The translations under genes were made by a program, and so were the position numbers. A stretch of DNA of 64,000 bases. It comes from a virus (lineage: Duplodnaviria; Caudoviricetes). The stretch spans positions 384,001 to 448,000 of the IMG/VR virus record IMGVR_UViG_3300037067_027616; one strand, 5' to 3'. A model generated the notes under the pieces. That model was given only the letters and a program-made list of their open reading frames with translations, was not told the origin of the DNA and did no database searches. Positions 12,438 to 44,725 of this stretch are shown here, piece by piece (position 1 is the stretch's first letter; each line of letters opens with the position of its first letter).

Positions 12438-12445
12438 AGTCTTGT

Positions 12446-26254: not shown

Positions 26255-27478
26255 ATGGCCAAAAAGGATTTAACGAAGAAACTCAGGTTGGTACGTTCAG
26301 GACAGGTTGGTGCAGGAGCCACGGCCTCCGCTGATGCCGAACAAAATGTGGATCAATACGGTTTGTCGATGCAGGAGGGTATCACCCGCCTCGAGGACGA
26401 GAACCGTAAGTTGCGCACGGAGCTTAAAACGGCACAACGCGACTCGACGGTGTTCAAGATGCTTGCGGCGGTCATCGAGCAACAACCGCCGTTCTCCACG
26501 TTCACGCCATACAGTTCCATCATAGATCGTAAAACACGCATTACCGAATCGGCCATGCTTGTGTTCTCCGACAGCCATGCCGACCAGGAGATAATCGCCA
26601 ACCGCGTCAGGGGCCTAGAGGAGTACGGGTTCGATATTGCTTGTCAGCGTGCGGAAAGAATAGTAGACACGACGATAAGTCACCTCATCGACAACATGAA
26701 GAACTACAGGTTTGAAACGCTTTACATTGCAGGTCTCGGTGATTACGTGAACGGCGAGATACACGGGGCCTCCGAACACAGCAAATGGCACAACGCCTTG
26801 AAGAATTCCATGGGAATGGGCGAACTGTTTGCCATGATGATAACCGATCTTTCAAGGTACTTCAAAAAGATTGTCGTGTGCAGCGTGTCCGGCAACCACG
26901 GTCGCAGATCAGCCAAGAAGGACTACCGAGGTGCACACGACAATTGGGATTACCTTGTAATTTCCCATGCCGCCACAAGGTTGAAGGGACTCATCGAGCA
27001 AGGCCGGGTGGAGATAGTTGCTCCGGACGCGTGGTCGATGATTGTGAATATATACGGATGGAATTTTGTTCTCAATCACGGTGACGACATCAGATCTTGG
27101 AATAGTCTCCCATGGTATGGGATCGAGAGGAAGACCCGCCGGCTCAATGCCATCGGGACTGTGACCGGGCAGATGCCAAATTATTATCTGTTTGGTCATT
27201 TTCATAATATGGGTTCACAACAGCATACGACGGGGGAGACGATCGTAAATGGAAATTGGTGTGCCACAGACGAATATGCTTTGGAAAGTCTCGGGGCCTA
27301 TTCGGAGCCTTATCAATGGCTCATGGGAATTCACCCCACCTATGGTCTTACATGGCGCCTTCCAATAAAACTCAGGAAGAAGGATTGGCGTGAGTCTCTC
27401 GGTAAGGCTTCCAGGTACACTATTACACAACTTGAGGGTAATTCGTTGGTGGGGGTTGACAAAGTTACTGAAGCGTAG
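26255..27478 (+). CDS. Calcineurin-like metallophosphoesterase with N-terminal coiled coil
   Basis: SDSH, LGD, GNHG, HGD, GHFH. Confidence 0.85.
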   Translation: MAKKDLTKKLRLVRSGQVGAGATASADAEQNVDQYGLSMQEGITRLEDENRKLRTELKTAQRDSTVFKMLAAVIEQQPPFSTFTPYSSIIDRKTRITESAMLVFSDSHADQEIIANRVRGLEEYGFDIACQRAERIVDTTISHLIDNMKNYRFETLYIAGLGDYVNGEIHGASEHSKWHNALKNSMGMGELFAMMITDLSRYFKKIVVCSVSGNHGRRSAKKDYRGAHDNWDYLVISHAATRLKGLIEQGRVEIVAPDAWSMIVNIYGWNFVLNHGDDIRSWNSLPWYGIERKTRRLNAIGTVTGQMPNYYLFGHFHNMGSQQHTTGETIVNGNWCATDEYALESLGAYSEPYQWLMGIHPTYGLTWRLPIKLRKKDWRESLGKASRYTITQLEGNSLVGVDKVTEA

Positions 27479-27484
27479 TATATT
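27456..27484 (+). promoter_or_regulatory. Promoter TTGACA-N17-TATATT driving the ncRNA array
   Basis: Perfect -35 box, 17-bp spacer; predicted start site (~27491) coincides with the 5' end of RNA unit 1. Confidence 0.8.
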
Positions 27485-27490
27485 ATGTCC

Positions 27491-27657
27491 GTTGTGGTTC
27501 TTTCTCATTCCGGTCAGCACTCCATGCGAGGGCGTACATGTATAGCTCAATTGGATAGAGCGCAAGACTATTAATCTTGAGGTTGCGGGATCATATCCTG
27601 CTACAAATGTTACACACGCACTAGCGACTTGTGCTGATTGGAATGAGGAAGAACAAC
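27491..27657 (+). ncRNA. Y RNA-like unit 1 containing a degenerate tRNA-like domain (27536-27610, anticodon loop CTATTAA)
   Basis: 24-bp closing stem GTTCTTTCTCATTCCGGTCAGCAC/GTGCTGATTGGAATGAGGAAGAAC; TCCAT..GGCGTACAT / ACGCA..GACTT motif; D, anticodon and T arms present. Confidence 0.75.
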
Positions 27658-27660
27658 TCT

Positions 27661-27797
27661 TTGAAAGTAAGTCTGCTCTCCACACCGGGGGCCTACATTC
27701 GATGGATAGTCGATGCTACGTACCGGGTTCTCCATAAGCCGTAAGTGCTTATGGTGGCTCGGTAAAGCAACCGGAACTCGAGCAGGTTTACCTTCAA
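27661..27797 (+). ncRNA. Y RNA-like unit 2 (hairpin insert, no tRNA domain)
   Basis: Closing stem TTGAAAGTAAGTCTGCTC/GAGCAGGTTTACCTTCAA; variant motif TCCAC..GGCCTACAT / AAGCA..AACTC. Confidence 0.6.
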
Positions 27798-27800
27798 TTT

Positions 27801-27960
27801 GCTCTTTCACATTCTGGCCAGCACTCCATGTTGGGGCGTACATTGCGATTAGCTCAATGGTAGAGCGCATTCCTTAAGAGAATGATGTCGCGGGCTCGAA
27901 ACCCGTATTGCAAACCAAAACACGCATTAACGACTTGTGCCGGCTAGAATGAGGAAGAGC
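27801..27960 (+). ncRNA. Y RNA-like unit 3 enclosing a full tRNA cloverleaf
   Basis: Closing stem GCTCTTTCACATTCTGGCCAGCAC/GTGCCGGCTAGAATGAGGAAGAGC, with compensatory changes relative to unit 1. Confidence 0.75.
27843..27917 (+). tRNA. tRNA-like element, anticodon TAA (nominally Leu), atypical
   Basis: Acceptor TTGCGAT/ATTGCAA + A + CCA; D arm GCTC/GAGC; anticodon stem CATTC/GAATG; T arm GCGGG-CTCGAAA-CCCGT; short variable loop. Confidence 0.55.
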
Positions 27961-27965
27961 GATGC

Positions 27966-28072
27966 TCTTTGACACAGACTCTCGTCCTCTATGCTCAGGG
28001 CGTACATTCGATACTACCATTAAGGTTTTGAATTAACGCACGAGTGACTTGAACGGGAGCCTGTGACAAAGA
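27966..28072 (+). ncRNA. Y RNA-like unit 4 (minimal insert)
   Basis: Closing stem TCTTTGACACAGACTCTCGTCC/GAACGGGAGCCTGTGACAAAGA; TCTAT..GGCGTACAT / ACGCA..GACTT. Confidence 0.7.
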
Positions 28073-28076
28073 CCAT

Positions 28077-28112
28077 AGAAGCCGGGGACTTCAAGTTCTC
28101 GGTTTTTTCTTT
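28077..28112 (+). terminator. Intrinsic terminator ending the ncRNA array
   Basis: GCCGGGGAC-TTCAA-GTTCTCGGT followed by TTTTTCTTT. Confidence 0.75.
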
Positions 28113-28217: not shown

Positions 28218-28472
28218 ATGGTACACGTTAAGTATGAGGGTCGTTCCGAGGACATCGAGTTTGACGCATTGTTCGCGCAGGATCGCCTGGCTTCTATAGG
28301 TATCCCTGCGGGTGTGGTGCCTACGCCGCAGTCGGTGACGCAACAGCAGATCAAGGTCGCCTTGGCGCAGCATTTCGATCGTGGTTTGACCGAGTTCGAT
28401 GAGATGTATGTCGAGGTCAACCCGAATGGAAACATCACGGTGCGTCCGGAGGCAGTGTTCGGTACCCGGTAA
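28218..28472 (+). CDS. Small ubiquitin-like (beta-grasp) protein candidate
   Basis: 84 aa with strand-strand-helix-strand pattern, ending VRPEAVFG-TR; strong AGGAGG RBS; E1 and JAB genes nearby. Confidence 0.6.
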   Translation: MVHVKYEGRSEDIEFDALFAQDRLASIGIPAGVVPTPQSVTQQQIKVALAQHFDRGLTEFDEMYVEVNPNGNITVRPEAVFGTR

Positions 28473-28548
28473 TAACAGGTCACAAGGTGAGGGGGTAACA
28501 AACATAACCCTTGTGACCTCTTGTCATAGTCTTGAACAAGGAGTCTGT

Positions 28549-28767
28549 ATGGTTCTTCTGTGGGACGTCATCGAGATAATTTTGGTGCTTGCTATTTTGA
28601 TGTTCATGGTTACCCAGGTATTCCTCCCGATTATACGGGGTACTCCGATGTACCCTTTTTTCAAGTCGAAGGAGCCAAAATTGTCAAAAGATTTGAAGGA
28701 GGCCCGGCAGAAGGTTGTTGAAAGTAACTTGAAAAAAGAGGTTGATGACACTAAGAACATTAAGTAG
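28549..28767 (+). CDS. Small single-pass membrane protein
   Basis: N-terminal hydrophobic helix and basic tail; precedes the Band-7 gene. Confidence 0.65.
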   Translation: MVLLWDVIEIILVLAILMFMVTQVFLPIIRGTPMYPFFKSKEPKLSKDLKEARQKVVESNLKKEVDDTKNIK

Positions 28768-28813
28768 TTCCCGGTAACAGTCAAATAACATACAAATCAA
28801 AAAGGAGATTCAG

Positions 28814-30010
28814 ATGCAGACGAGAAATGATCAGTTGTCCGCCCGTATCCCGCTTTCAGTCAACCGTAGCCTGCACCTTTTCGTGTGGGTCGGGATCTTC
28901 TTCCTTTTTATCCTGGCTTCCTTCAACCTTTGGGAGATGCTTGATTCCGACAAAATCATGGTGATCCAAAGCCCGTTCAAGGGGACATTGAATTGGCACA
29001 CCAACGCAGGCATCAAGTGGCAAGGAATCGGAAAGGTATCAAAGTACCAAAAAAGGGACATCTACGAGTTTGAGATACCCGTGCGTTTCAACGATGGCGG
29101 ACACGGGACCATCGTGGGATCCATACAGTATGACATGCCCATTGATGCAGAGAATTTGACAGAGTTGCACACGAAATTTGGCAGCCAGAAGGCGGTGGAG
29201 TCGGCCCTCATTCAGACGGTGACCAACAAGGCGATTTACATGACGGGCCCCCTTATGTCATCTAAAGAGTCCTATGCGGAACGCAGGAATTATCTCATAC
29301 GGTACGTAGAGGATCAAATCGAGAACGGCGTGTACAAGACCGTAAGCCGTGAGCAGAAGGTCATAGATCAGATGACCGGGCAGGAGAAAACGGCCACCGT
29401 TGTCGAGATCGTGTTGAAGGATGGTATTCCGGAAAGGCAGGAGAATGCCGTGTTGCAGGAGTTCGGGATACGGACATTCAACTTCTCCATCTTGAAGTTG
29501 CCGTATGACGATGCGGTGGAAGGCCAGATTAAGGCCCAGCAACAGTTGGCGATGGACGTCCAAACCAGCATAGCCGAAGCCAAGAAAGCAGAGCAACGTG
29601 CCATCACGGTCGCCAAGAACGGCGAGGCGGAAGCCATGAAGGCAAAATGGGAGCAGGAAGTGGTTAAAGCAAAGGCCGTGACCCTTGCAGAGCAGAGTAA
29701 GGAAGTGGCAAAGCTCGAAAGGGACGCCTCTGAGTTCACTAAACAGAAGAACATCCTTGATGGAGAGGGAGAGGCCGCCAAGAAACGCCTTGTAATGCAG
29801 GCCGATGGCGCCCTTACGCAGAAGCTTGAAGCATGGGTGCAGGCGCAACAGTACTACGCCGCCGCCCTGCAGAATTTCAAAGGTAACCTCGTTCCAAGTG
29901 TCATCATGGGGGAATCCGGAAAAGGTTCGAGTAGCATGGATCTCATAAACCTTCTTACGGCGAAGACAGCGAAGGATCTTGCGTTGGACATGGAGATGAA
30001 GGGAAATTAA
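28814..30010 (+). CDS. Band-7/SPFH-domain membrane protein
   Basis: N-terminal TM helix, VRFNDGG core, Ala/Glu/Lys-rich coiled coil, VPSVIMG tail. Confidence 0.8.
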   Translation: MQTRNDQLSARIPLSVNRSLHLFVWVGIFFLFILASFNLWEMLDSDKIMVIQSPFKGTLNWHTNAGIKWQGIGKVSKYQKRDIYEFEIPVRFNDGGHGTIVGSIQYDMPIDAENLTELHTKFGSQKAVESALIQTVTNKAIYMTGPLMSSKESYAERRNYLIRYVEDQIENGVYKTVSREQKVIDQMTGQEKTATVVEIVLKDGIPERQENAVLQEFGIRTFNFSILKLPYDDAVEGQIKAQQQLAMDVQTSIAEAKKAEQRAITVAKNGEAEAMKAKWEQEVVKAKAVTLAEQSKEVAKLERDASEFTKQKNILDGEGEAAKKRLVMQADGALTQKLEAWVQAQQYYAAALQNFKGNLVPSVIMGESGKGSSSMDLINLLTAKTAKDLALDMEMKGN

Positions 30011-30082
30011 CAGATGAGGGACGGAGTGGTGGTCGCCGTCCCTCGGCGACCACCGCGGCCACCACATAAAATGGAGGAACAG

Positions 30083-31672
30083 ATGAACAGGCGTGTTGCA
30101 GCTCCCGCACCTCAGGCAGTGGAATCCCAGGACAAGCGCCTTGCGCTTCTCAACGCTTTCATGACGTGTCCGCACAGGGACACCGATCGCATCAAGCAGA
30201 TCCATGACGAGGTGAGGAAGCAGGATCCTGTTTTCTACGCGCACCTTGCTTGTTGGTACGACCGTACCGGGGACATAAGGGATCACAAGGAAGTTTTCGC
30301 TTCCATGTTGACCGTTGACCCCTTCATGGACAACCGTGAGGTCGGCCTCGCCTTGTTCAGGGACATGCCCATTTTCCTCAAGAAGAGGGTCGTGGGATTC
30401 ATCAAGGGCAAGAAGGTGAAGATCCGCACCAAGACCGGTGAGAAGATGACCGTCGAAAAGGGCAAGGCGAAGGGGAAGGTCATCGAGAAGGTCCGGGTCG
30501 AAGAGCGCAAGGTCGGACTCGATGCGAACGTGCCGCACGGACTCAAGACCGAGGTGAAGAACTATCTCCGGTGGCTCGAATCCAATGACAAGCGGTGGGA
30601 CGAGGCGGCCATACGTTCGTTCTGGGATCTCAAGTATCTGTACAAGTCCGGTGGACTGCAGATCAAGCCGAGTCCCAGGGCGCAGGAGATCCTGTTCGAG
30701 GGTAAGGTACCCGAGGGAAGCAAGCTGAACGTCCTTGAGGAGTTCCGCAAGGCCAAGACCCCCGAGGAGGCTGCCAAGCTCATCGTCGAGAACAAGATCC
30801 CGTACACGGTGGCGGTCGGACTCACGGACAAGGTAACGCCAAGCATACTCGTCGCCCTTATCGAGCGGATGTCACCGCAGGAACTTTTGAACAACATCGC
30901 CTCCCTTGAGGAGAAGGGGGCCATGGCTGTTCCGGAGGTCAAGGCCATCATCGACAAGAAGTTGGTGAAGGCCAAGACGGCCAAGGGTGTATCCGCGCTC
31001 AAGTCAAAGACGGCGAAGGCCACGGGGAGGATCAAGGACGAGTCGACCGCGAAGAAGCTGGACGAAATCGCCGACACCCAGATCAAGAGCAAGGGTGTCA
31101 TCAGCCTTTCCACGGCTATTCTTATCGACCGCTCCGGGAGTATGACGGAGGCCATCGAGGTGGGTAAGAGGCTGGCTACGGTTGTTTCCGGAGCCACCGT
31201 TGCCAACCTTCAGGTTGTGGCGTTTGATTCCTCGGCCGCAGAAGTCGTATCCAAGGGCAAGACGTTGAGTGATTGGGAAGATGCGTTCAAGGGCATCAAC
31301 CCTGGCGGACAGACGTCCATCGGGTCGGCTTTGTACTACCTTCTGCGCAAGAAGGTGGTGGTCGAGCAGATCGTGGTCGTGACTGACGAGGGGGAGAACG
31401 CGCTTCCGTGGTTCACCGATATATACGAGAAGTATTGCACGGAGATGAAGGTGAAGCCCCATGTCGTGGTCATGCACGTGGGCGGAGCCGACAAGACGTT
31501 CTCTACGAACCTCACCCGGGCAAAAATCGAATTTGATACGTACACCCCGGAGGGGAGTGACTACTACGGGATGCCTGGTATCATACAGCTTTTGGCTCGT
31601 AAGTCGAAGCTCGACCTCGTCTACGAAATCATGGACGAACCCCTCCGCAAGAGGGTGCCGTTCAAGGGGTAA
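30083..31672 (+). CDS. Ro60/TROVE-like helical-repeat protein with C-terminal VWA domain
   Basis: MIDAS DRSGSM, GGQTS, VTDEGEN; N-terminal DPVFYAHLA and MSPQELLNNIASL segments reminiscent of TROVE; start after GGAGG. Confidence 0.65.
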   Translation: MNRRVAAPAPQAVESQDKRLALLNAFMTCPHRDTDRIKQIHDEVRKQDPVFYAHLACWYDRTGDIRDHKEVFASMLTVDPFMDNREVGLALFRDMPIFLKKRVVGFIKGKKVKIRTKTGEKMTVEKGKAKGKVIEKVRVEERKVGLDANVPHGLKTEVKNYLRWLESNDKRWDEAAIRSFWDLKYLYKSGGLQIKPSPRAQEILFEGKVPEGSKLNVLEEFRKAKTPEEAAKLIVENKIPYTVAVGLTDKVTPSILVALIERMSPQELLNNIASLEEKGAMAVPEVKAIIDKKLVKAKTAKGVSALKSKTAKATGRIKDESTAKKLDEIADTQIKSKGVISLSTAILIDRSGSMTEAIEVGKRLATVVSGATVANLQVVAFDSSAAEVVSKGKTLSDWEDAFKGINPGGQTSIGSALYYLLRKKVVVEQIVVVTDEGENALPWFTDIYEKYCTEMKVKPHVVVMHVGGADKTFSTNLTRAKIEFDTYTPEGSDYYGMPGIIQLLARKSKLDLVYEIMDEPLRKRVPFKG

Positions 31673-31677
31673 AGATC

Positions 31678-31920
31678 GTGTTCGACTTTGAAAACCTGGA
31701 AGCCGACCTCAAGGATCTCCTCTCGCGTTCGCGGGAGGATGGTTCTTCTTTTGGGTCGTATGTGGAATCGTTCGCGAGTAAATGGCTGGTGAAAACCGAG
31801 CCTATGAAGCATGACATAGTCACACGTTTCTTGAGCGAGAACAAGAGTCCCGCGAGGATACGTCCGCTTGATATGCGCGGCGTACCCCCCGATGGGATGG
31901 GGAAGGCTGATAGTGCGTGA
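31678..31920 (+). CDS. Hypothetical protein
   Basis: Fills the gap; GTGA overlap with the next gene. Confidence 0.5.
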   Translation: MFDFENLEADLKDLLSRSREDGSSFGSYVESFASKWLVKTEPMKHDIVTRFLSENKSPARIRPLDMRGVPPDGMGKADSA

Positions 31921-32789
31921 ACGACATCCTGTCTGTCATATCCAAGATGGCCTCCGCGGAGTCAACTCTCCTCGGTAGCACCTTCGTGGCACCCGTAGCC
32001 GGTAACGATGTCGTCGCGGCCTGCGTGTGCGGTATGTCCTACACGTTCTCCATACCAAAAGTGGAAAAGCCCGGGTGGTACGAATTCAAGCCCAGGGACT
32101 CGAAAAAGGCCTCTGTGGTAGGTCCTGCCGACCTGGCAGAGACCGAAGGATACCTTAAGAGGTTGCCATCCGTGCGCGTGGTGCTTTCCCACAAGATCAA
32201 GGGTATATACCACGGTGTTCCGCTCAAGTCAAATTCGGCGGGACTTCCTTGTACGGGTCTTGTACCGATTCTTCTCGTGGATGACATGGCTGACGATTTT
32301 GACAAGGTGGTGTGCCGTTACGATGGCATGAACCTGTGGTACGATCGTGTCGATGCATCCAACGACCAATCCAAGGGCGAGTACCTCAGGGAGAGGTACG
32401 CCAAGCTCTCCATCCCGGCATCGTTGAAGTTCAAGGGACTGACGTTCGAGGAGAAGGCCGCTTATTCAATACGCATCACTATGGATAAAAAGGCCATAGA
32501 GGAACACAGGACGAAGTCCGTTAAGATTGATGTGGAGCATGCCGGCGGTGTCTTCAAGGGCCTCAAGGAGAAGCGTGAGCATTATGAAGTTACCTACGAG
32601 GTAGATGGGCAGAGGTACATGAGTGTCATTTCCAAGGATCCCGCGCGCAGTGTCATCAGTGCCGGTATATGTTTGTCAGGTGGCGATAGGGCATTTGATT
32701 TGAAGAGTCTTATCACAGTCATGCGCGAAGGTCAGCACCGAGGCAGGATAGTACGAGGCCACGGTGATTTTGGTCATTGGGAGCATTGA
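31917..32789 (+). CDS. Conserved hypothetical protein, candidate divergent E2-like enzyme
   Basis: C-terminal beta-meander followed by SAGICLSGGD; E2 role inferred from motif and context only. Confidence 0.5.
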   Translation: MNDILSVISKMASAESTLLGSTFVAPVAGNDVVAACVCGMSYTFSIPKVEKPGWYEFKPRDSKKASVVGPADLAETEGYLKRLPSVRVVLSHKIKGIYHGVPLKSNSAGLPCTGLVPILLVDDMADDFDKVVCRYDGMNLWYDRVDASNDQSKGEYLRERYAKLSIPASLKFKGLTFEEKAAYSIRITMDKKAIEEHRTKSVKIDVEHAGGVFKGLKEKREHYEVTYEVDGQRYMSVISKDPARSVISAGICLSGGDRAFDLKSLITVMREGQHRGRIVRGHGDFGHWEH

Positions 32790-32790
32790 T

Positions 32791-33018
32791 ATGAGCACAC
32801 CGTTGACGTTCAAGGAACTGCCGGACGGCGCGAAGTTTATAAGCTTCCCGGTAGAAGGGGACGACATGGGCCATGGGGGGTACCGCAGCGGGTTCAACTT
32901 GTTCACCAAGTTGGCTATATACGATTATGAAAAACACTATACGAACAACGCCGTGAGGAACGACACCGGGACACTATCACACATGCCACCCGATATGCAG
33001 GTTATTCTTATTCTTTGA
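32791..33018 (+). CDS. Hypothetical protein
   Basis: ORF with GGAG RBS. Confidence 0.55.
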   Translation: MSTPLTFKELPDGAKFISFPVEGDDMGHGGYRSGFNLFTKLAIYDYEKHYTNNAVRNDTGTLSHMPPDMQVILIL

Positions 33019-33025
33019 GGTTATT

Positions 33026-34690
33026 ATGTCAACCACATCCCTCGTGCAGGCTATCAAGGAATTCAAGGACAAGCAGGCGAAAGTTTCGTCTCCGTCCGAT
33101 GTGGTGCTTCAAACTGTTTCGTGGGATCTCGACACGGCGTTCGTGGGACGACGTATCAACGCATCGACTGTCGGCCGTTTGAGCGCGTATGTCGATCGCA
33201 GGCTCGAGGAATACTCGGCGATTCACAACAGTATGCCCGCCGTCCGCACACCCGTCCGTACCCCCGATATTGCGGTTGATCTAGGGGTCGTTCCAGATGA
33301 AAAACCGATAGGACACGTAATACGTATTAACCCCATGCCAGATGACGATCACGTTGCACATGACACCAACACGGATATTTTTAATCGTCCCAACCCCTTC
33401 GCGGATGAAGAATCGGAGATACCACCACAAAGATTAAACACTGAAGAATCTCAAGACGAAGCCATGCGTGAGTGTGTCAACGAGGCTCGTGCGGGAGGCG
33501 TGCCGGCAGGTGCTATCTACAATGACGGCCAAATTGACTATCCTAAAGGGCAAGAAGATGAGGGTGAACGAGATGTGAACAGGTTTTATCAAGACGACAC
33601 GGAGATCGCCTTGCCTCGAAGGGAGTGCGCCGGGATTAGTGTGAGGAGGCTTCCTGACAGCACTGTTGAGGGTTTCAGATTGAAGACACAGGATCCAAAC
33701 GCTAGAATCCCTTTATATCACCCTCTTCCAGAGGACGGGGTAGGTGGTTTTGATGGTGCCATTTTTCACCACAGTGACAACAAACAAGCGAATAGTAGCA
33801 GAGTTGGTTTCGCTGACGCCAGTGCATATGAGCAATCGTGGCAGATGGGCGGGAATCTTGATACGTTGGTCAATTCACAAGGGTTGCTCCCCGAAGTTAC
33901 AAATAGGGTGCGAGACACATTCTTGCGCGAGCCCCCTGAAGTAGCCGACACCCAACCTCGTGAGGGTGTTCTGCGAACTCAAGATGGTCAGGAAATCGGC
34001 GCTCAAGATTTACGCCCCATATCCAATAGCATCTTGCGCACGCAAGATCTACGAGAAATCAATAACGATCCGATGCGGCCCATCAAAATAAAACCCACTC
34101 ATGTGGGATTGAACCCTTTCAGAACTCCCTGGCCGTGGCCTCGTAATAATACGACCGACACCACTTCGTACGTCACTTCCTACGATATTGACCACCATAC
34201 CCTCAAAATAACCGCACGGGTTTTAACGGTGCCTTCCTTAATGAAGGTCAACAGTGAGTTGTGGTTTAATATATGTTCCGAGTCCGAACCCAAGGACTTG
34301 AAGGAAGTCATCCGCAGGACCGTGAAGGCCAACCTCCTCATATGCTTGAAGAAATGCCGCAGCGAAGGGTGGCATACGGACGAAGAAGGTACAGAGGAAT
34401 TGGCTTTGTGCACACTACGCGAGATGATATCCGAAAAAGATTTCAAGAAATACCTCAAATATGGATTCGTGGCGATCAAGGGTAAAAGCGGAGACGTCTA
34501 TCAAGTGTTCCGCAACAAGCATCACACGAAAGTGTGGCGGGGCAACAGAGTTGTGGAAGAAATATGTATTCGGTTGTGTTCAAAGGTTAAGGTACCTCCG
34601 ACAGACAACGTGATCGCCTTCATGACGATGATATCGGCCGATGAGGAAGCATTCAAGAAAGCCGGCAACAGATACAAGGGGGTGTTATGA
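33026..34690 (+). CDS. Hypothetical protein with long disordered centre and globular C-terminal domain
   Basis: Internal LxTQD repeats; C-terminal YLKYGF..ICI..PPTDNVIA..DEEAF. Confidence 0.65.
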   Translation: MSTTSLVQAIKEFKDKQAKVSSPSDVVLQTVSWDLDTAFVGRRINASTVGRLSAYVDRRLEEYSAIHNSMPAVRTPVRTPDIAVDLGVVPDEKPIGHVIRINPMPDDDHVAHDTNTDIFNRPNPFADEESEIPPQRLNTEESQDEAMRECVNEARAGGVPAGAIYNDGQIDYPKGQEDEGERDVNRFYQDDTEIALPRRECAGISVRRLPDSTVEGFRLKTQDPNARIPLYHPLPEDGVGGFDGAIFHHSDNKQANSSRVGFADASAYEQSWQMGGNLDTLVNSQGLLPEVTNRVRDTFLREPPEVADTQPREGVLRTQDGQEIGAQDLRPISNSILRTQDLREINNDPMRPIKIKPTHVGLNPFRTPWPWPRNNTTDTTSYVTSYDIDHHTLKITARVLTVPSLMKVNSELWFNICSESEPKDLKEVIRRTVKANLLICLKKCRSEGWHTDEEGTEELALCTLREMISEKDFKKYLKYGFVAIKGKSGDVYQVFRNKHHTKVWRGNRVVEEICIRLCSKVKVPPTDNVIAFMTMISADEEAFKKAGNRYKGVL

Positions 34691-35064
34691 GTGACCTGGA
34701 TAAGGCATTTCAAGTGTTAGAGATGTATGGCGTTCCAAAATCGAGGGCGCGCACGGTCGCAAACGGTATTCAAGTTTTGATGGATAGACTTCACCGTGCC
34801 GAACTATCTGCCGATATTGTTCCATGTAGTAATTGGGTTGAGGGCAACGGGTGTTCCATTGGGTTTGGTGACAAGTGTTCTGCCAGGCGGTGTATGCTTA
34901 CACGTAATCAAGATACCATACTAAAACGCATGCAAGATGACGCTTGCCCTTTTTGCGTAGGACGAACAGGTATGGTGAGTGCAACGTGTGAGGAATGTTT
35001 CGGGTCAGGTAAACGACTTCAAACAGAGATAAAAGATAATGCGATCAGTGCCACCAACGAGTAG
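34687..35064 (+). CDS. Cys-rich hypothetical protein
   Basis: CPFC...CEECFGSG. Confidence 0.55.
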   Translation: MSDLDKAFQVLEMYGVPKSRARTVANGIQVLMDRLHRAELSADIVPCSNWVEGNGCSIGFGDKCSARRCMLTRNQDTILKRMQDDACPFCVGRTGMVSATCEECFGSGKRLQTEIKDNAISATNE

Positions 35065-35100
35065 TCAAATACACTTAAACCATACGGGAAGGGGTTTATT

Positions 35101-35283
35101 ATGGAGTTCTACATCGTCGTAGCGGCGTTCGCGATCGTGATTGCCATTCTTTTGGGTAAGAGAATCGGTATCAACCTCAAATTGGTTGGCTTTGCGGCCA
35201 TCATCGGGCTTGTGTTGACTTTTATTTCGACGGCCATCGTGTCCGTTTACACGGCAATATGGTTGTTCAAATTTTTGAGATAG
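35101..35283 (+). CDS. Small two-helix membrane protein
   Basis: Two hydrophobic segments. Confidence 0.55.
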   Translation: MEFYIVVAAFAIVIAILLGKRIGINLKLVGFAAIIGLVLTFISTAIVSVYTAIWLFKFLR

Positions 35284-35498
35284 CAGGAACAGGCGCTAAC
35301 CTTATCAGTCATGGTGCGTACTGTGCGAGGCCGTGATCGCTGGAAACAGCTTACCTGTGCGTCCCCGATAAGGGGGACTGAATAGGGACATAGGTCACCC
35401 GCCCAAAAAAATATCGCGGGTACATCAAGAGGATGTCCATAGTCTTCGGTGGTGTTCCCATTAATGAGAGCACCGCGCCTTTTTAAAAAGGAATTGAC

Positions 35499-35858
35499 AT
35501 GAAGTACAAAATTGGTGACATAGCCGAGTGTATCGAATCGGACATCAGTGCCATCGTGGTAACCCCCACCAAATGTATAAGAGACGGCTTTTTTCTTTTT
35601 TGCGACATAGACCGTGACCGCGGGACCATCTACCAAGGAACATACACAGACGAAGGTTTGTTTCCCGACCAACCAGCCGTTAATGTGCGCGTTGAAAAAA
35701 TAGTATACGTTGGCGCGTTCAAAGGTGACGTTGATACTGTCAAAGATTTGGAAAAATTTGTAGTGAACAACGTACCATTGGTAATTCTTGAGGAGTTGGC
35801 TAAACATGCACGACCGGATGTAAAAAGCCTCGCCAAGAAGCGCTTGAAAAAGAAATGA
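35499..35858 (+). CDS. Hypothetical protein
   Basis: KYKIGD start; AAGGA RBS. Confidence 0.6.
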   Translation: MKYKIGDIAECIESDISAIVVTPTKCIRDGFFLFCDIDRDRGTIYQGTYTDEGLFPDQPAVNVRVEKIVYVGAFKGDVDTVKDLEKFVVNNVPLVILEELAKHARPDVKSLAKKRLKKK

Positions 35859-36238
35859 GGTGGTTCATGGCTTTTCTGCATTGTCACTCGTGCGATTGGT
35901 CCCAAGACGACTATTGGGATTTCAGCATCCGACGCGGCTATGGCCACTTCAAGGTGCTCGGGATTGAGTGGCAGTACAACCCGGTGTCCTGCTTCTTGTC
36001 CTACGTGTTCGGCAGACACGGCTATTGGTGGCCGCGCCGGATAGACTTCGATGACAACACTGCCAAGGAATGCGGCTGGAAGCGCAGAGACCCACACTCA
36101 TGGTTCCTCATTGTGCGGGAGTTCAAAAGGATGATCCGCAAGTTCAAGAACCAGCGCTGGTGGACGCACGAGAAGTTTTTGGCGGACGTGGACGCCGTGT
36201 GTCCCAATTGTGGGAAAAGGAATTTCGATGAGGATTGA
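35855..36238 (+). CDS. Zn-ribbon hypothetical protein
   Basis: CHSC...CPNC; ATGA overlap. Confidence 0.6.
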   Translation: MRWFMAFLHCHSCDWSQDDYWDFSIRRGYGHFKVLGIEWQYNPVSCFLSYVFGRHGYWWPRRIDFDDNTAKECGWKRRDPHSWFLIVREFKRMIRKFKNQRWWTHEKFLADVDAVCPNCGKRNFDED

Positions 36239-36260
36239 AATTTAACAAGGAGCCGTAGTC

Positions 36261-36581
36261 ATGTTTAAAAAGATTGTGTCGTGTGTGCTGATTGTTTGTG
36301 TGCTTTCGGTAGTTGTTGGTTGTGGATCCGACAGGACCGTATGCCTTCCTGGCGCCGATGAGAAACAGGTGTGTAAAACATATGGACAGTATGGAATGTT
36401 CAACGGTTACGACATGAAAAACCAACACGTTCAGTATCGAGTTATCGTCGGAAATGTCGTGTGGGCAATCATATTGGTAGAAACAATTTTCACCCCTATC
36501 ATTATTTTTGGGTGGTACTTGTATGAACCCATAGGACCTCGAGCGGTTATACCTAATGACATTGGGGTGGTCAATAATTAA
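36261..36581 (+). CDS. Putative lipoprotein/membrane protein
   Basis: Signal-like N-terminus ending VVGC; second TM segment. Confidence 0.6.
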   Translation: MFKKIVSCVLIVCVLSVVVGCGSDRTVCLPGADEKQVCKTYGQYGMFNGYDMKNQHVQYRVIVGNVVWAIILVETIFTPIIIFGWYLYEPIGPRAVIPNDIGVVNN

Positions 36582-36623
36582 AAGACCCAACAAAGGTCAT
36601 GAACCCCAAACAGGGGGTGTTGA

Positions 36624-36803
36624 ATGGGTGACGAAGTGCAGGGTATGTCCACAGAGGATCTTATCTCCAATTTGGTTACTTGTGACTACCGTGGCCAAGC
36701 TTTCAAAAGGTGCTGTTTGGATGAACTCCTTTTGAGAAAAACCCGTGATGAGATTAAAAACGTTCAAGAGGTAGGGGTAGAGAAGCCAATAGCCCAAGGA
36801 TAG
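36624..36803 (+). CDS. Small hypothetical protein (59 aa; not in ORF track)
   Basis: Manual translation MGDEVQGMSTEDLISNLVTCDYRG...; GGGGGT RBS; fills the intergenic gap. Confidence 0.5.
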   Translation: MGDEVQGMSTEDLISNLVTCDYRGQAFKRCCLDELLLRKTRDEIKNVQEVGVEKPIAQG

Positions 36804-36832
36804 GGAAGGAAATAATCCGAGTAAAATTTGTT

Positions 36833-36861
36833 TGGACAAAACAATTTTGAAAAAGTATATT
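36833..36861 (+). promoter_or_regulatory. Promoter TGGACA-N17-TATATT
   Basis: Recurrent motif upstream of the JAB gene. Confidence 0.6.
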
Positions 36862-36908
36862 TATAAAGACACAGAAGCTACGAGTAGTTTAAAGAACAGG
36901 ATATACTG

Positions 36909-37286
36909 ATGGCTTTCTCTGAAGAATGCTGGGCGTTGCGTGGGTTGAACCTCGATCCCGTTTTGTGGATCTGGAGGGAGCAGTACATATCAAAGGGTAG
37001 CGGGGCAAGTGTCAATTTCGATTGGGAGAAGGCTTGGGACGACAAGTCAATTATCGGTTGGAGGCACACCCACCCAGGAACGAATTTTGATTTTCCGAGC
37101 AGTGTTGACGACAGAACCATGAAATCCTGGGTGAAGGCAACGGGGAAGTCAATGATATGTGGAGTGACTTGCGGGACGTCCACAAAATATTATCTTTACG
37201 GAGCCAATATCGGCGGGGATATGGATTCTGAATTGCGATACATCCGTATACCTGTTTTAGGGGTGGTGCTGGCCAATCAAAATTAA
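36909..37286 (+). CDS. JAB/MPN+ (JAMM) metallopeptidase
   Basis: N-terminal Glu (EECW) and GWRHTHP...PSSVD Zn-binding motif. Confidence 0.8.
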   Translation: MAFSEECWALRGLNLDPVLWIWREQYISKGSGASVNFDWEKAWDDKSIIGWRHTHPGTNFDFPSSVDDRTMKSWVKATGKSMICGVTCGTSTKYYLYGANIGGDMDSELRYIRIPVLGVVLANQN

Positions 37287-37305
37287 GTTCGAGGGAGAAT
37301 CTCCC

Positions 37306-37503
37306 GTGGGTGATAAGAAGGAAACAAAAGAGCGAGCCGACCCCACATCCTGTCCGTTAGCGGGGTGTGCTCACAGGGAGGGATGCGCTATAATCGATAT
37401 CACAGGCAAAGCTCCGAAGCCGGGTGGGAAGTGTTCATATTACGAGAAGGAACACACGGGTCGTAAGAAGGTCAACAAAAACGAAGGTTCTAACGAGTTG
37501 TAA
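37306..37503 (+). CDS. Small Cys-containing protein
   Basis: C-x4-C-x5-C...C; GGAG RBS. Confidence 0.5.
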   Translation: MGDKKETKERADPTSCPLAGCAHREGCAIIDITGKAPKPGGKCSYYEKEHTGRKKVNKNEGSNEL

Positions 37504-37523
37504 ACACAATCATGGGGGTAAAT

Positions 37524-38030
37524 ATGAAGGAACGTACGGCGTCCATACCGAAGTTTGAGTTCACCGGGAGTCCTTTGGATCCGGAAAAGACCATGATGCT
37601 GATGGGACTCATAGTGGCTACCAAATCACCCGACAACCCGGAAGTTCCTATGGAGAAGGACGGGAACCTCATGGACATGTTTTTGGCCAAAGTGGCTGAG
37701 GCGAGGATACGTGTGTACCCGCTCCCGTTCAACATCACGAATTTTTTCTTCGCCGCCTCGATGATTACCTTCATGAACACCCCGGGCATGGTCATGGGTA
37801 TGCTTTGGCTGGCCAAATGCTACGCCGAGAAGACAGGCAAAAAGGTGCTGACGGTGGGTGATTGGTGCGAGATGTTCCCGGTTGGTACACCGACCCCGGA
37901 GGAATGCGAGAGGTGGTGGGACGCGCAGAAGGTCACCTGGGAGAGGAAGTCGTTGGAAAGCGACAATATGGTCGACTACCCCGAATTGTGGGGGTGTGTT
38001 GATAAGTCCATAGAGAACGCGACTGTTTAA
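37524..38030 (+). CDS. Hypothetical protein
   Basis: ORF with RBS; FPVGTP..WWDAQK..DNMVD. Confidence 0.6.
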   Translation: MKERTASIPKFEFTGSPLDPEKTMMLMGLIVATKSPDNPEVPMEKDGNLMDMFLAKVAEARIRVYPLPFNITNFFFAASMITFMNTPGMVMGMLWLAKCYAEKTGKKVLTVGDWCEMFPVGTPTPEECERWWDAQKVTWERKSLESDNMVDYPELWGCVDKSIENATV

Positions 38031-38048
38031 CCAACGAAGGAAAAACCC

Positions 38049-38258
38049 ATGCCGATCGAACACACAAAGAAATTTGGCATCTACCATTGGGATACGTTTG
38101 ACAATGAAACATATATGGTGGATGAAGCCGATACATTGGCAAAAGCTGAAAGCGTAGTCAAGAAAACGTACGGCGAAAGAATCAGGGACACCGGGGCGGA
38201 TCAAGTGGACATCGTAGATAGCAAAGGAAACGTTGTCAAGTCTTACAAAATCGGGTGA
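38049..38258 (+). CDS. Hypothetical protein
   Basis: ORF with AAGGA RBS. Confidence 0.55.
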   Translation: MPIEHTKKFGIYHWDTFDNETYMVDEADTLAKAESVVKKTYGERIRDTGADQVDIVDSKGNVVKSYKIG

Positions 38259-38270
38259 ACGGAGATAGAC

Positions 38271-38912
38271 GTGGCAGACGTATTGGTGCATGAAAGGGTA
38301 TACCGCGGAGAGGCGGTCATGGCCAAAATGGCCGCACTGCAGATAACCGTCTGCGGCGCCGGGGCTGTTGGCTCGAACCTCATCGACAACATTTCCCGGC
38401 AGGGCTTCAAAAAGATAACGGTCATCGATGACGACCGTGTCGAGGCCCACAACATCCCTACACAGGTATGGTCAAGGCGCGAAGTCGGGCAATTCAAGGC
38501 CGCCATGCTCAAGAACCTGGTGTTCAATTCGTCCGGTGCAACGGTGGAGGCCGTCACGCGCAGGCTCGATGACGGTAATGTGAAGAAGTACCTGTCGACC
38601 GCCGGCCTTGTCGTGGACGGCTTTGACAATTCCGCGAGCCGTGCGTTGGTCGCCAAATACTGCAGGGAGGCCAAAAAGGACTGTTTGCACGTGGGTTTGG
38701 CGAAGGATTACGCCGAAGTCGTCTGGAACGAGCGGTACCGGGTGCCAAAGGACGTGGTGGGTCAGGACGTGTGTGAGTACCCCATGGCCAGGAACACCAT
38801 CCTGTTGGCCGTTTCCGTGGCTTCAGAGGTCATTGTGAGGTATGTGGCCACCGGAGAGAAAAAAGACTACGTAATTACCCTTGGGGATTTCAAGGTTGAT
38901 GGTGTTTTGTAA
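38271..38912 (+). CDS. ThiF/E1-like adenylyltransferase
   Basis: CGAGAVGS, IDDDRVEAHN, K, VVDGFDN; downstream Cys in DVCEYP. Confidence 0.9.
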   Translation: MADVLVHERVYRGEAVMAKMAALQITVCGAGAVGSNLIDNISRQGFKKITVIDDDRVEAHNIPTQVWSRREVGQFKAAMLKNLVFNSSGATVEAVTRRLDDGNVKKYLSTAGLVVDGFDNSASRALVAKYCREAKKDCLHVGLAKDYAEVVWNERYRVPKDVVGQDVCEYPMARNTILLAVSVASEVIVRYVATGEKKDYVITLGDFKVDGVL

Positions 38913-38972: not shown

Positions 38973-39321
38973 GGGGGTGTTCCGGTTTCGACGTGATGAC
39001 TGAATTGCTGGTAGCATGCCGAGGTTCATCGGTTGGCCTCGTTAAAAGCCGATGACGTTATAACTGCCGAAGATTACAGCTATGCCATGGCAGAAGCTGC
39101 CTAATTAATAGGTAGCGAAAGTGTACGTTGACGCCTCTATTCGTACACTTAGCAGAGGCTGGGTTCGTGGTGTGACGGACTACGGGTCGAGATTCGTCTT
39201 GGGTTGCCTTAAGTGGTTTCTGGTTCAGGGAGGGCAACTGACGTTGTTGAACCAGATAAGCATGTAGAAGCCATCATGGATGGCGTTGCGGACAGGAGTT
39301 CGACTCTCCTCACCTCCACCA
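38973..39321 (+). ncRNA. ssrA: tmRNA; tag (A)AEDYSYAMAEAA* at 39066-39104
   Basis: GGGGGTG/CACCTCC-ACCA acceptor with G3-U70; GGTTTCGAC; T arm AGGAG-TTCGACT-CTCCT; ATAACT upstream of resume codon; tag ends AA-stop. Confidence 0.95.
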
Positions 39322-43121: not shown

Positions 43122-43655
43122 ATGCAGGAGTATAAACACAAAAAGAATGGGTACTCGCTCAACGCTGTGAGGCTCATATATGGCTCACGGAGTCCGCATG
43201 CCGAGCAGTTCTCCATGTATTCCATGCCGCCGCATGACAGTCATCGCGTACAGTATCACGAGTTGGAGAATGCCCGGGAGCCGTCCCTCGGACCGGGAAT
43301 CAACACGTGTACGAGGATGGTGAGTTTTGGTGACGGCAGGAGTTTGACTTCCACCATCACACAAGGCACAGGCATCAACACGGCCATAGTGTACCGTGAG
43401 TTACTCATAGATCCTGGCGAGTATTCAAAGCAGTTTACAGATTCCTTGTTTTCCCAGCCGGAGTACGAGTACTTTGAGCGCCATTGGGACGATCAAGTGC
43501 AGTACAAAGTGAACATCCTTGCAAAGTTGATACAAGCTTTGGACACGGGGGACGACACTATCTACCCGATACTCGTGGCTGACTTCCCGGAGATATCGAG
43601 GTACCTCTTGTCCAAGCCGAGCATCATCACCCAAAGGTCGCCGATATGGCCATGA
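43122..43655 (+). CDS. Hypothetical protein
   Basis: ORF with RBS. Confidence 0.55.
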   Translation: MQEYKHKKNGYSLNAVRLIYGSRSPHAEQFSMYSMPPHDSHRVQYHELENAREPSLGPGINTCTRMVSFGDGRSLTSTITQGTGINTAIVYRELLIDPGEYSKQFTDSLFSQPEYEYFERHWDDQVQYKVNILAKLIQALDTGDDTIYPILVADFPEISRYLLSKPSIITQRSPIWP

Positions 43656-44725
43656 AATTCGATGTGCAAGCCTTCATCAACCACCCCCATGTGCTCACGA
43701 AGCGCAAGGACGGATTGGTAATTTTCAATTACGACCACGGGTGCACTTATGATAAGGCTTGGGACGATATCACCATGCAGGCTCGGGGACTCATACTTGA
43801 GGAGGCTACAGGAAAAATTATTGCCCGTTGTATGAAAAAATTCTTTAATATTAACGAGACGACCGAAACCAAATTTGAAAATCTTCCAAATATTTCTTTT
43901 ACCGCCACGGAGAAGCAAGACGGTTATTTGGGTTTGTATTATCGGTGGCGTGGTGAGGAACACATAGCTACCCGGGGTTCGTTCGAGTCGGAAATGGCCG
44001 TGTGGGGTACGGATTGGTTCCGGCGTAACGTCCGCACATCTGTGCTTGATGATGATTGGACGTATCATTTTGAGATCATTTACAGCCGTAAAATTGTGAT
44101 AGCATATGACTTCGAGGGTCTTGTACTTCTCACTGCCATCAACAAAGAAACTGGTGAGGAGATGCCGTACGGCCGCCTCTGCGATGAAGCCAAAGCCATG
44201 GGGGTTAGGGTAACTCCGCTTATGCCTGCATTCGGCAGCCTTTTGGAGCTGGCTGAATATACAAAATCGTTACCCGGAAACAAGGAGGGGTGTGTCGTCA
44301 CCTTCTCCAACGGGTTGAAGGTAAAGATAAAAGGGGATGAGTACTGCCGGATACACAAGATAATCAGCAATATGACTCCGCTTGCCTTCTGGGAGGCCTA
44401 TGACATCAATAAAGAGGCCATCCCGGTCGAGTACCTCCAAAGCATACCCGAGGAGTTCCGCGAGGTTTCAGACGGTATTAAGGAAGCCATAGAGGGTCGC
44501 ATAAATGCAACTGTTTCCGAAATGGAAAGGGTATGCAAGGAGGTTGAGGCATCGTTTCCTCCGGATGTAAGTGACAAGGACTTTGTGGCCAAGGTGAAAA
44601 GCCTGCACCCGAAGGATTTTGGTTGGATCATGTACTGCCACAAGGGCAATCGAAAAAAGCTTGTAACCGCCATCCACAGGAACAGTCGTCCTACAAACAA
44701 CGTCCTTGTGGATGACGCGGGGTAA
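43646..44725 (+). CDS. T4 Rnl1-like RNA ligase
   Basis: ARGLI, KFFN, EKQDG (motif I), TRGSF, FEII, EGCVV, KVKIK. Confidence 0.85.
   Translation: MAMKFDVQAFINHPHVLTKRKDGLVIFNYDHGCTYDKAWDDITMQARGLILEEATGKIIARCMKKFFNINETTETKFENLPNISFTATEKQDGYLGLYYRWRGEEHIATRGSFESEMAVWGTDWFRRNVRTSVLDDDWTYHFEIIYSRKIVIAYDFEGLVLLTAINKETGEEMPYGRLCDEAKAMGVRVTPLMPAFGSLLELAEYTKSLPGNKEGCVVTFSNGLKVKIKGDEYCRIHKIISNMTPLAFWEAYDINKEAIPVEYLQSIPEEFREVSDGIKEAIEGRINATVSEMERVCKEVEASFPPDVSDKDFVAKVKSLHPKDFGWIMYCHKGNRKKLVTAIHRNSRPTNNVLVDDAG

Follow-up and report, generated by a model that had tools for sequence, protein, structure and literature searches.

A gene set of huge phages and bacteria that may couple minimal ubiquitin-like activation to a Ro60-RNA particle

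Little is understood of what two systems of a eukaryotic style, Ro60 proteins and ubiquitin-like modifiers, do in bacteria. We describe here a region in which genes of both kinds are joined in one operon. It lies in a 64,000-nucleotide stretch of DNA (the window) that makes up bases 384,001-448,000 of the virus record IMGVR_UViG_3300037067_027616, a 466,729-bp sequence estimated to be 98% complete. The operon holds genes for a putative ubiquitin-like protein (Ubl), a divergent Ro60 homologue, a 290-residue protein with a conserved cysteine (P290), a JAMM/JAB metallopeptidase (JAB) and an E1-like adenylating enzyme (E1). Because homologues of window genes occur on contigs of 170-595 kb, the source is regarded as a huge phage. 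When the region was compared with GenBank phages by megablast, no match was obtained. An earlier reading of the same DNA (the original prediction) had taken these genes as a phage-encoded ligation cascade with a possible E2 enzyme, linked to a Ro60-like particle and a Band-7 protein.

Known Ro60 (Rsr) particles are represented by Deinococcus Rsr-Y RNA-PNPase and Salmonella rsr-yrlBA-rtcBA (PMC4201824). A phage-encoded example is phiRo60 of Thermus phage phiLo, which binds two phage Y-RNA-like RNAs (Yrl1 and Yrl2) and host PNPase (PMC12135203; PDB 9KOP, 9L5Y); that paper makes no mention of ubiquitin, ThiF or JAB. The jumbo-phage survey of Iyer et al. reports ROT/TROVE proteins with a tRNA-like partner and no Ubl machinery (PMC7824862), and an Asgard-virus preprint names Ro60 and three ThiF genes with no link drawn between them. 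Like the proteins of these particles, the cassette protein has TROVE and vWA regions with a complete metal-ion-dependent adhesion site (MIDAS) and is homologous by profile; the adjacent RNAs have tRNA-like modules, as YrlA does, and RNA ligase genes lie nearby. Unlike them, it escapes the Pfam TROVE model and belongs to a fixed operon with Ubl, E1, a JAMM peptidase and P290 (an OB/Cys protein).

On the Ubl side, the closest systems are the archaeal SAMP/UbaA/HvJAMM1 and Thermus TtuB/TtuC (PMC4443979, PMC4895103). Like the cassette, they lack a recognisable E2 and combine a small beta-grasp protein that has a C-terminal Gly with a JAMM isopeptidase and an E1 of the MoeB type. Both sides are tied to tRNA biology, and the bacterial orthologue of JAB is nearest to desampylase (5.7e-8, under the cut-off). 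The cassette differs in that its Ubl ends in an aromatic residue followed by Gly, its E1 of 213 residues is without a rhodanese domain or zinc motif, Ro60 and P290 are dedicated partners, and no sulfur-transfer partners were found in the phage genome.

Resemblance extends to the Bil, Bub, CBASS Cap2/Cap3 and 6A-6E systems (PMC11601596). The E1 core matches PADLOC E1-E2 models at 1e-15 and the NCBIfam 6A-MBL cap2_3 model at 1e-17 (far under its cut-off), a JAB peptidase is present (weak PADLOC match), and the Ubl has a C-terminal Gly. Unlike in those systems, no E2 domain was found, fused or separate, no system-specific model was matched, the partners are RNA-binding, and the set is found in phages too.

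Two more distant comparisons bear on single proteins. Atg8/Atg12-type C-termini have an aromatic residue before the reactive Gly, and Atg4 trims the Atg8 tail. The FG, WG or YG end of the cassette Ubl, and the phage copies with a short tail needing removal, recall this. On the other hand, there is no sequence relationship, relatives of Atg7, Atg3 or Atg10 are absent, the peptidase is of the JAMM and not the Cys type, and a lipid target would be pure speculation. TcdA/CsdL, the tRNA t6A dehydratase, is the best-scoring solved relative of the E1 profile and an E1-like enzyme that acts on tRNA, although the likeness is confined to the Rossmann core and barely above that to other E1s. To our knowledge, TcdA has no Ubl substrate and no JAB partner.

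Both halves of the cassette are of known kinds, Ro60-Y RNA particles and E2-less Ubl/E1/JAMM triads, and it is their fixed union with a new Cys protein that is apparently undescribed. Searches of the full-text literature returned nothing relevant that connects Ubl, ThiF, JAB or JAMM with Ro60 or TROVE, with a prior mention in Burroughs and Aravind 2016 (NAR 44:8525) not excluded. Neither NCBIfam (June 2026) nor PADLOC has a model for the Ubl, for P290 or for the Ro60-like protein. P290 represents a family without a Pfam or NCBIfam model in which one Cys is invariant across bacteria and phages. With five proteins and a few RNAs, the cassette is a compact system in which to ask about the role of bacterial Ro60, Ubl transfer without E2, and RNA-directed tagging, and it places the odd tRNA-like genes and the tRNA arrays seen in huge phages in a functional setting.

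The five-gene cassette in phages and bacteria

All genes listed in the original prediction are present on the + strand, which carries almost all genes of the window. The five that form the core are as follows.

28218..28472, + strand: predicted ubiquitin-like protein (Ubl), 84 residues, ending VRPEAVFG-TR; beta-grasp-like in its model, with Gly82 followed by a TR tail
30014..31672, + strand: divergent Ro60 homologue with TROVE and vWA regions, open reading frame of 552 residues (family profile; Pfam vWA)
31917..32789, + strand: P290, 290 residues, predicted OB barrels and a SAGICLSG Cys loop with the invariant Cys252
36909..37286, + strand: JAMM/JAB metallopeptidase, 125 residues (Prok-JAB, E 6e-4)
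38271..38912, + strand: minimal E1-like adenylating enzyme, 213 residues (PF00899 (ThiF), E 5e-26, 91.6 bits)

These genes are kept in the order Ubl, Ro60, P290, JAB, E1 in 14 huge-phage contigs at 28-68% identity, and contigs reached via P290 homologues have the same five genes in the same order. Among GenBank phages, close relatives are confined to LR756511.1, the 595-kb sequence of an uncultured phage, which carries the five genes in the same order on one strand (28-49% identity). In two phage contigs (L002 and L003) the operon is compact, about 4 kb long, and its genes abut or overlap. When IMG/VR was searched with an E1 alignment, 8 loci were obtained, having vWA and P290 genes upstream in 8/8, JAB in 7/8 and Ubl in 6/8 (one locus ends before Ubl); a single E1 sequence as query returned no loci from IMG/VR, so that the alignment query was needed.

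An E1-anchored search was then made in 185,579 genomes, one per prokaryotic species. It gave at least 599 pattern matches and at least 569 confirmed loci. In the best 80 of these at least 569 loci, tblastn with the phage proteins detected P290 in 67, Ro60 (vWA) in 56, Ubl in 47 and JAB in 36, counts to be read with many loci ending at a contig edge. The genes found there have the same order and strand as in the phage cassette. These 80 loci belong to Planctomycetota, Cyanobacteria, Chloroflexota, Obscuribacterales, Desulfobacterota, Acidobacteriota and others, with a concentration in the first three, and include contigs or chromosomes of 4-8 Mb.

The recurrent order in 14 phage contigs and most of the best 80 bacterial loci far exceeds a chance grouping of five genes. 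The cassette is a widespread bacterial operon that is also found in two separate huge-phage lineages, and not a phage invention. In three bacterial contigs of 4.3-8.3 Mb (L033, L060 and L095) the flanking genes are those of dihydrodipicolinate synthase, adenylosuccinate lyase, a histidine kinase and a PLD-type enzyme. Because these flanks are housekeeping genes, the operon is self-contained, and the possibility that the bacterial cassette is a prophage remnant was rejected on the same ground. Thus the linkage of the Ubl, JAB and E1 triad to a Ro60 homologue and tRNA-like RNAs, put forward in the original prediction with gene neighbourhoods named as a check, holds as a conserved gene linkage in both collections of loci.

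In Obscuribacterales, Ubl, P290, JAB and E1 stand together, and Ro60 is 1.3-8 kb downstream or undetected. Judging from this gene order, the tie of P290 to the Ubl chemistry is no looser than its tie to Ro60. In a quick FastTree of P290 and E1 (midpoint root, supports not inspected), phage copies fall in two places: a deep phage clade includes the window, and LR756511 and four IMG/VR contigs make up a second clade that lies within bacterial sequences. The tree suggests more than one exchange between phages and bacteria.

Some contigs filed as prokaryotic resemble huge-phage DNA. One is L018 (WJJK01000193.1), filed under an Altiarchaeales metagenome-assembled genome, which has seven further genes in common with the window. 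Another is L022 (JAWLHY010000004.1, 509,855 bp), filed under an Armatimonadota metagenome-assembled genome, with a tRNA array inside the cassette. Some 'bacterial' contigs are probably mis-binned phages. In the cyanobacterial locus L095, a DUF6208 protein (10667-11614, E 1e-124) comes directly after E1.

Proteins and RNAs of the cassette

The Ubl was modelled with a pLDDT of 89.5 and a beta-beta-alpha-beta-beta order. Its nearest structural match is MoaD, a sulfur carrier, the beta-grasp match having a Z of 4.4; Foldseek with the Ubl model returned nothing significant. Among 19 phage-type Ubl sequences, T74, R76 and G82 are invariant, and Gly82 either is the last residue or precedes a tail of T, K, S, L, V, TR, GH, VN, EN, SK or KS. 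Bacterial copies (47/47) have about 66-90 residues and end ...RPEAV[FY]G-stop, with no tail. Hence the TR cap noted in the original prediction is real in the window and not general, as all these bacterial copies and several phage copies end at Gly. The penultimate residue is always F, W or Y, so that the Gly-Gly end of sulfur carriers is not found. Short tails without conservation behind a conserved terminal Gly mark an E1 substrate made as a precursor, and the Ubl would be such a protein. The model and the conserved terminal Gly support the assignment, also made in the original prediction, of the small protein as a beta-grasp-like Ubl.

The E1 is the single ThiF-family gene in the whole 466,729-bp genome. 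Invariant in its alignment are GxGxxG (G29/G31/G34), D53, D55-R56, N61, K76, D116/D119 (as D116-x-F-D119), R124, C138 and C168. The D-x-D-R...N..TQ motif is also invariant, and the adenylation core is complete with GxGxxG, an Arg finger and a Mg-binding Asp. C168, the Cys after the core to which the original prediction had drawn attention, lies within D-[VI]-C-[ED]-Y-P-L-A-R-N, at the position of the crossover-loop cysteines in other E1s. The E1 scores under the curated cut-off of every NCBIfam family. Membership of the PRTRC group was considered and rejected, as the score was 51 bits against a cut-off of 145 and other PRTRC models were unmatched. When the E1 profile was compared with the PDB, TcdA came top (6.7e-16), followed by the E1s of SUMO and ubiquitin, Uba4, MccB, MoeB and ThiF, from a few bits to 20 bits behind. 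At the level of profiles, then, the E1 is not discriminated among solved E1s.

A complex was modelled from two E1 chains and a Ubl ending at Gly82, a multimer check that the original prediction had named. The score was 0.88 and the best of three controls reached 0.00; in calibration, the 0.88 mark was reached by 58/80 solved complexes and 2/110 mismatched pairs. At least 96% of contacts agree between runs, with a partner pLDDT of at least 91. In the model, Ubl residues 76-82 contact the GxGxxG loop (29, 31-34), the DGFDN site (117-121) and R124 of E1, and E1 residues 170 and 172, next to C168, also contact Ubl. This model supports binding of Ubl by E1 with the tail in the adenylation site.

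In JAB, the E...HxH...S..D motif is invariant in 7 phage orthologues, so the JAMM metal site is complete, in keeping with the JAMM peptidase of the original prediction. PADLOC JAB models match the protein. JAB is a probable Ubl tail-trimming and deconjugating enzyme.

The Ro60-like protein probably starts at the ATG at 30071, giving 533 residues. Pfam sees only its vWA domain (VWA_2, 1.6e-5), and Pfam TROVE (PF05731) gave no match in this protein, in 28 relatives or in the whole genome. A narrow profile reached a TROVE protein at E 0.38 only. From an exhaustive profile search with the N-terminal 335 residues, which gathered 643 cluster representatives, a family profile (A8) was built from 52 diverse full-length members. 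Against the PDB, A8 matched human Ro60 (9nen_A) at 4e-15, Xenopus Ro60 at 3e-10 and Deinococcus Rsr at 6e-7. It matched Thermus phage phiRo60 (9l5y_A) at 1.1e-12, positions 25-395 of the profile aligning with 61-431 of the chain and covering both TROVE and vWA. The vWA_Ro60 family (PF25045) was matched by 9/28 members, and one relative (P0394) was above the cut-off at 33.4 bits. ESM features of the protein point to TROVE/DUF2828 at 0.90. The MIDAS residues D353, S355, S357, T415 and D439 are invariant in 52 sequences. By profile homology, the vWA protein is a true, divergent Ro60 homologue with a TROVE helical region; what had been called TROVE-like before is confirmed by a family profile at 4e-15 to 6e-7.

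P290 is predicted to have an N-terminal helix, two OB/cold-shock-like barrels that fill the N-terminal two thirds, a 32-residue helix, a four-stranded sheet, the Cys252 loop and a final helix. The barrels are arranged as in the CSD/S1 domains of RNase II/R. The Cys loop reads SAGICLSG-x-D-xx-FDL, and Cys252 is invariant in phage and bacterial orthologues. Residues invariant in 30 phage and bacterial members include E15, P26, R134, G137, Y183, G250, C252, L253, D257, D261 and L262.

For this protein, marked by its GICL motif, the original prediction had proposed a possible E2 role, and that part is not supported. The residues before Cys252 are S-A-G-I and not the His-Pro-Asn (HPN) of E2 enzymes, and His208 is lost in divergent members. 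No UBC fold was matched by Foldseek, VIA wide or Atlas, searches whose hit lists were taken up by the OB domain and for which the Cys domain (172-290) had no separate model. Pfam gave no consistent family at E up to 10 among 30 members, comparison with PDB profiles returned a repeat artefact alone, residues 172-290 gave no usable ESM feature match, and neither NCBIfam nor PADLOC matched P290. Prok-E2_A, Prok-E2_B and UQ_con had no match anywhere in the phage genome. P290 is therefore not recognisably a UBC-fold E2, and a complete E1-E2 cascade is unproven and not supported. From its predicted barrels and invariant Cys, P290 is a candidate RNA-binding Cys carrier or acceptor. Many relatives of P290 have an acidic C-terminal tail whose last residue is aromatic (DEDDDY, DDDDDY), recalling the C-terminal tips of single-stranded DNA-binding protein (SSB). 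The window protein ends ...GHGDFGHWEH.

Upstream of the Ubl gene lies an array of non-coding RNAs, in which repeated GGCGTACAT motifs stand alongside tRNA-like modules.

27456-27484, + strand: promoter-like site, score 11/12, at the upstream end of the RNA array
27456..28107, + strand: non-coding RNA array before the Ubl gene (ARAGORN and Rfam tRNA matches)
27535-27610, + strand: tRNA-like module 1 of the array, anticodon AUU
27843-27917, + strand: tRNA-like module 2 of the array, anticodon UAA
28077-28107, + strand: terminator-like hairpin of the array

By nhmmer, array-like sequence was found beside the Ubl gene in eight phage contigs (L001, L003-L006, L008, L011 and L014), and array-like matches lie on the opposite strand in L002. 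ARAGORN reports tRNA-like genes with odd anticodons beside the Ubl gene in phage loci. Rfam Y RNA families had no match in the window or in 8 bacterial loci. In 15/47 bacterial loci, tRNA or tRNA-like genes on the same strand stand directly beside the Ubl gene or between Ubl and Ro60, three of the 15 having arrays of 10-26 tRNAs. Across the 47 loci there are 0.13 tRNA calls per kb, several times the typical density of a bacterial genome. The RNAs of the array could be Y-RNA-like partners of the Ro60 protein.

The cassette has large tRNA arrays at its flanks in LR756511, L012, L013 and L014, and Rnl1 RNA ligase homologues lie downstream of it in L010, L011 and L018. The operon is embedded in the translation-RNA part of the phage genomes, with RNA ligases close by.

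The arrays of 10-26 ordinary-looking tRNAs stand beside or inside the cassette in L022 (3765-4954), L077 (3642-5467) and L084 (2692-5619). L084 is a 5-Mb Phycisphaerales contig and L022 may be phage DNA; such large tRNA arrays are unusual in bacteria.

Mechanism and rival explanations

The best reading of these results is a Ubl activation or conjugation module that has no recognisable E2 and works on or through a Ro60-RNA particle. The region would then be a phage copy of a conserved bacterial operon coupling minimal Ubl activation to such a particle, a proposal for which we judge the case about evenly balanced. Of the phage-encoded ligation cascade proposed originally, Ubl, E1, JAB and the linkage to Ro60 stand, whereas the E2 is unsupported and the cassette is also a chromosomal operon in hundreds of bacterial species.

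From the genes, motifs, linkage, Ro60 homology and models we infer the following course. JAB would remove the Thr-Arg tail and expose Gly82 of Ubl. E1 would bind Ubl as MoeB binds MoaD and adenylate Gly82, which would probably move onto Cys168 of E1, possibly as a thioester. The activated Ubl could be handed to Cys252 of P290, which would stand in place of an E2 as carrier or end acceptor, and could then pass to amino groups of proteins held at the particle. Targeting would be RNA-based, through the ring of Ro60, the barrels of P290 and the tRNA-shaped RNAs, so that tagging would act on or through this RNA-surveillance particle, which sits among tRNA, tmRNA and RNA-ligase genes. JAB may also reverse the tagging. 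Presence in two separate huge-phage lineages suggests a benefit during infection, and the purpose is probably care or protection of the phage tRNA pool, or marking of RNA-handling enzymes.

Several points weigh against this reading. The searches for an E2 were negative: P290, whose Cys domain had no separate model, showed no UBC match by fold, profile or Pfam. JAB is absent from many bacterial operons, e.g. the cyanobacterial ones, so that trimming or deconjugation is not essential to the system. The beta-grasp match of the Ubl model (Z 4.4) is low, under the level safe for a fold call alone. The 0.88 of the E1-Ubl model was obtained with its own alignments and two copies of one chain, unlike the calibration set, and may reflect memory of the solved MoeB-MoaD and ThiF-ThiS complexes that the model resembles. 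TcdA, which is E1-like and acts on tRNA, has the best E1-profile score, only slightly above true Ubl E1s. Finally, JAB, E1 and a capped Ubl also occur together in sulfur-carrier pathways (CysO/Mec+, QbsE/QbsD).

This last point leads to the main rival, sulfur-carrier chemistry on tRNA-like RNAs, which we regard as unlikely. Here Ubl would be adenylated and converted to a C-terminal thiocarboxylate that gives sulfur to a base of a tRNA or tRNA-like RNA, as with TtuB/TtuC and Urm1/Uba4, P290 would be an RNA-binding acceptor acting via Cys252, and JAB would only trim. The MoaD-like structural match of Ubl and the dispensability of JAB fit such a course. Yet sulfur carriers end in Gly-Gly, and the Ubl ends in F, W or Y followed by Gly; the E1 has neither a rhodanese domain nor a CxxC zinc motif and remains under the curated cut-offs of all families; and P290 shows no PP-loop or thiolase-like motif. 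The original prediction had seen no sulfur-relay partners in the window, and this extends to the whole 466,729-bp genome, which has one ThiF gene, no rhodanese and no credible PP-loop thiolase, the one PP-loop match being of 13.8 bits and 170 kb away, although host enzymes could serve. A classical cascade is less probable still. The C-terminal domain of P290 would be a very divergent UBC-fold E2, so that a Bil/Bub/CBASS-type E1-E2-JAB-Ubl set would be fused to RNA-binding domains. The predicted order of helix, four strands, Cys loop and helix in P290 177-274 is indeed that of a minimal UBC core, Cys252 is invariant, and P290 shows the tightest linkage of any gene to E1 and Ubl. Against it stand the missing HPN, the loss of His208, the absence of Prok-E2_A, Prok-E2_B and UQ_con matches in the genome, and fold and sequence searches without any UBC or E2 match, the fold searches having hit lists taken up by the OB domain and no separate query for the Cys domain.

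Two further explanations seem very improbable. E1 might act directly on RNA, as TcdA does on t6A37, by activating a carboxylate on a modified base of a tRNA-like RNA, with the small protein as cofactor or chaperone. TcdA does top the PDB matches and tRNA-like RNAs are usually nearby, but it is ahead of Uba4 and of the SUMO and ubiquitin E1s by about 3 bits, and over the Rossmann core only. An invariant C-terminal Gly, variable tails and a JAMM peptidase are, moreover, hallmarks of an E1 substrate, and in the modelled complex it is the Ubl Gly that occupies the adenylation site. Nor is there much room for the Ro60-RNA particle and the Ubl triad being two unrelated modules that are merely adjacent in a variable huge-phage region. 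The 4 kb of unrelated small genes between P290 and JAB in the window, and the distant or undetected Ro60 of Obscuribacterales, would suit this explanation. However, order and strand are kept in 14 phage contigs and most of the best 80 bacterial loci, across several phyla and with unrelated flanks, and in compact forms the genes overlap or abut.

If tagging at the particle is the right reading, it could go further. In a version that we hold to be doubtful, the cassette would be an RNA-guided tagging machine. The Ro60 ring, the RNAs and the P290 barrels would bait enzymes that handle or attack tRNA (anticodon nucleases, PNPase, modification enzymes), to which Ubl would be attached via Cys252; or, in a more radical form, the Ubl Gly would be esterified to the CCA end, or joined to an amine, of a tRNA-like RNA. 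If true, RNA-guided tagging or a protein-RNA conjugate would be a form of Ubl signalling for which no precedent is known, and it would occur in huge phages as well as in hundreds of bacterial species. The conjugate would be made by aminoacylation-like chemistry.

Neighbouring genes and minor observations

Other features of the window in and around the cassette are listed here.

28549..28767, + strand: small hydrophobic (transmembrane) protein, accessory, noted from its sequence; travels with the Band-7 gene
28814..30010, + strand: SPFH/Band-7-like protein, 398 residues, accessory (Pfam Band_7, phrog_11908)
31678..31920, + strand: 80-residue protein between the Ro60 and P290 genes; family-wide conservation absent
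32764..36735, + strand: variable insert from P290 to JAB, with about 10 small open reading frames and one of 554 residues; no family matches
38973..39321, + strand: phage tmRNA gene, context (Rfam 162 bits; ARAGORN), 60 nucleotides past the E1 stop
43646..44725, + strand: T4 Rnl1-type RNA ligase, context (PF09511, E 9e-20), about 5 kb beyond E1

The Band-7-like protein scores 23.1 bits with Band_7 (E 8.7e-5), just under the Pfam cut-off of 23.6, and matches phrog_11908 at 1e-38. Together with the transmembrane protein it lies inside the cassette in 3/14 phage contigs; L006 and L010 have the pair between JAB and E1. Band-7 occurs in none of the best 80 bacterial loci. Its place as a core part was therefore rejected, and the two proteins, which had been put among the linked parts, are better seen as occasional passengers absent from most relatives.

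The sole family counterpart of the 80-residue protein is a weak match in L005 (31% identity). The insert of about 4 kb between P290 and JAB is absent or different at other loci, P290, JAB and E1 being contiguous in L002, L003 and many bacteria. Within the insert, the C-terminal 100-170 residues or so of the 554-residue protein (33026-34690) form a domain without a family match, which recurs in three separate genes of L004 (433-930, 2610-2897 and 3344-3685) at 43-65% identity. A gap of about 190 nucleotides without genes (35291-35480) had no Rfam match at the gathering threshold.

JAB and E1 are separated by three small open reading frames in the window. Between them lies a 65-residue Cys-rich protein (37306-37503), placed likewise in L005 (19023-19154); its relatives lie about 7 kb downstream in L003 (19035-19172, - strand) and L011 (17413-17514).

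A tmRNA gene directly after E1 is also found in L005 (20072-20423) and L010 (11100-11500). The tag peptides differ, that of the window being AEDYSYAMAEAA. A Methyltransf_24 protein (window 41418-42167) and a 303-residue protein (39807-40718) accompany the downstream side of the cassette in L005, L006, L010, L011 and L018, and relatives of the latter carry a weak radical-SAM mark in precomputed Pfam matches.

Beside the cassette in L003, a 424-kb phage contig, an Rnl2-type RNA ligase, a match to Pfam BubE (PF20137), an AAA_33 kinase and a WGR-PARP protein are encoded (1149-2539 and 12219-14100). Further afield, L007 (KX853510.1, Virus Rctr197k; 197 kb, from a methane-oxidising enrichment) has a distant ThiF of 27% identity on the - strand. 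A vWA-like stretch about 7 kb upstream of this ThiF, annotated only as misc_feature, is possibly a decayed Ro60-like gene (the two lie at 4757-5380 and 12235-14226, - strand), and tRNA gene arrays with more than 40 members surround both.

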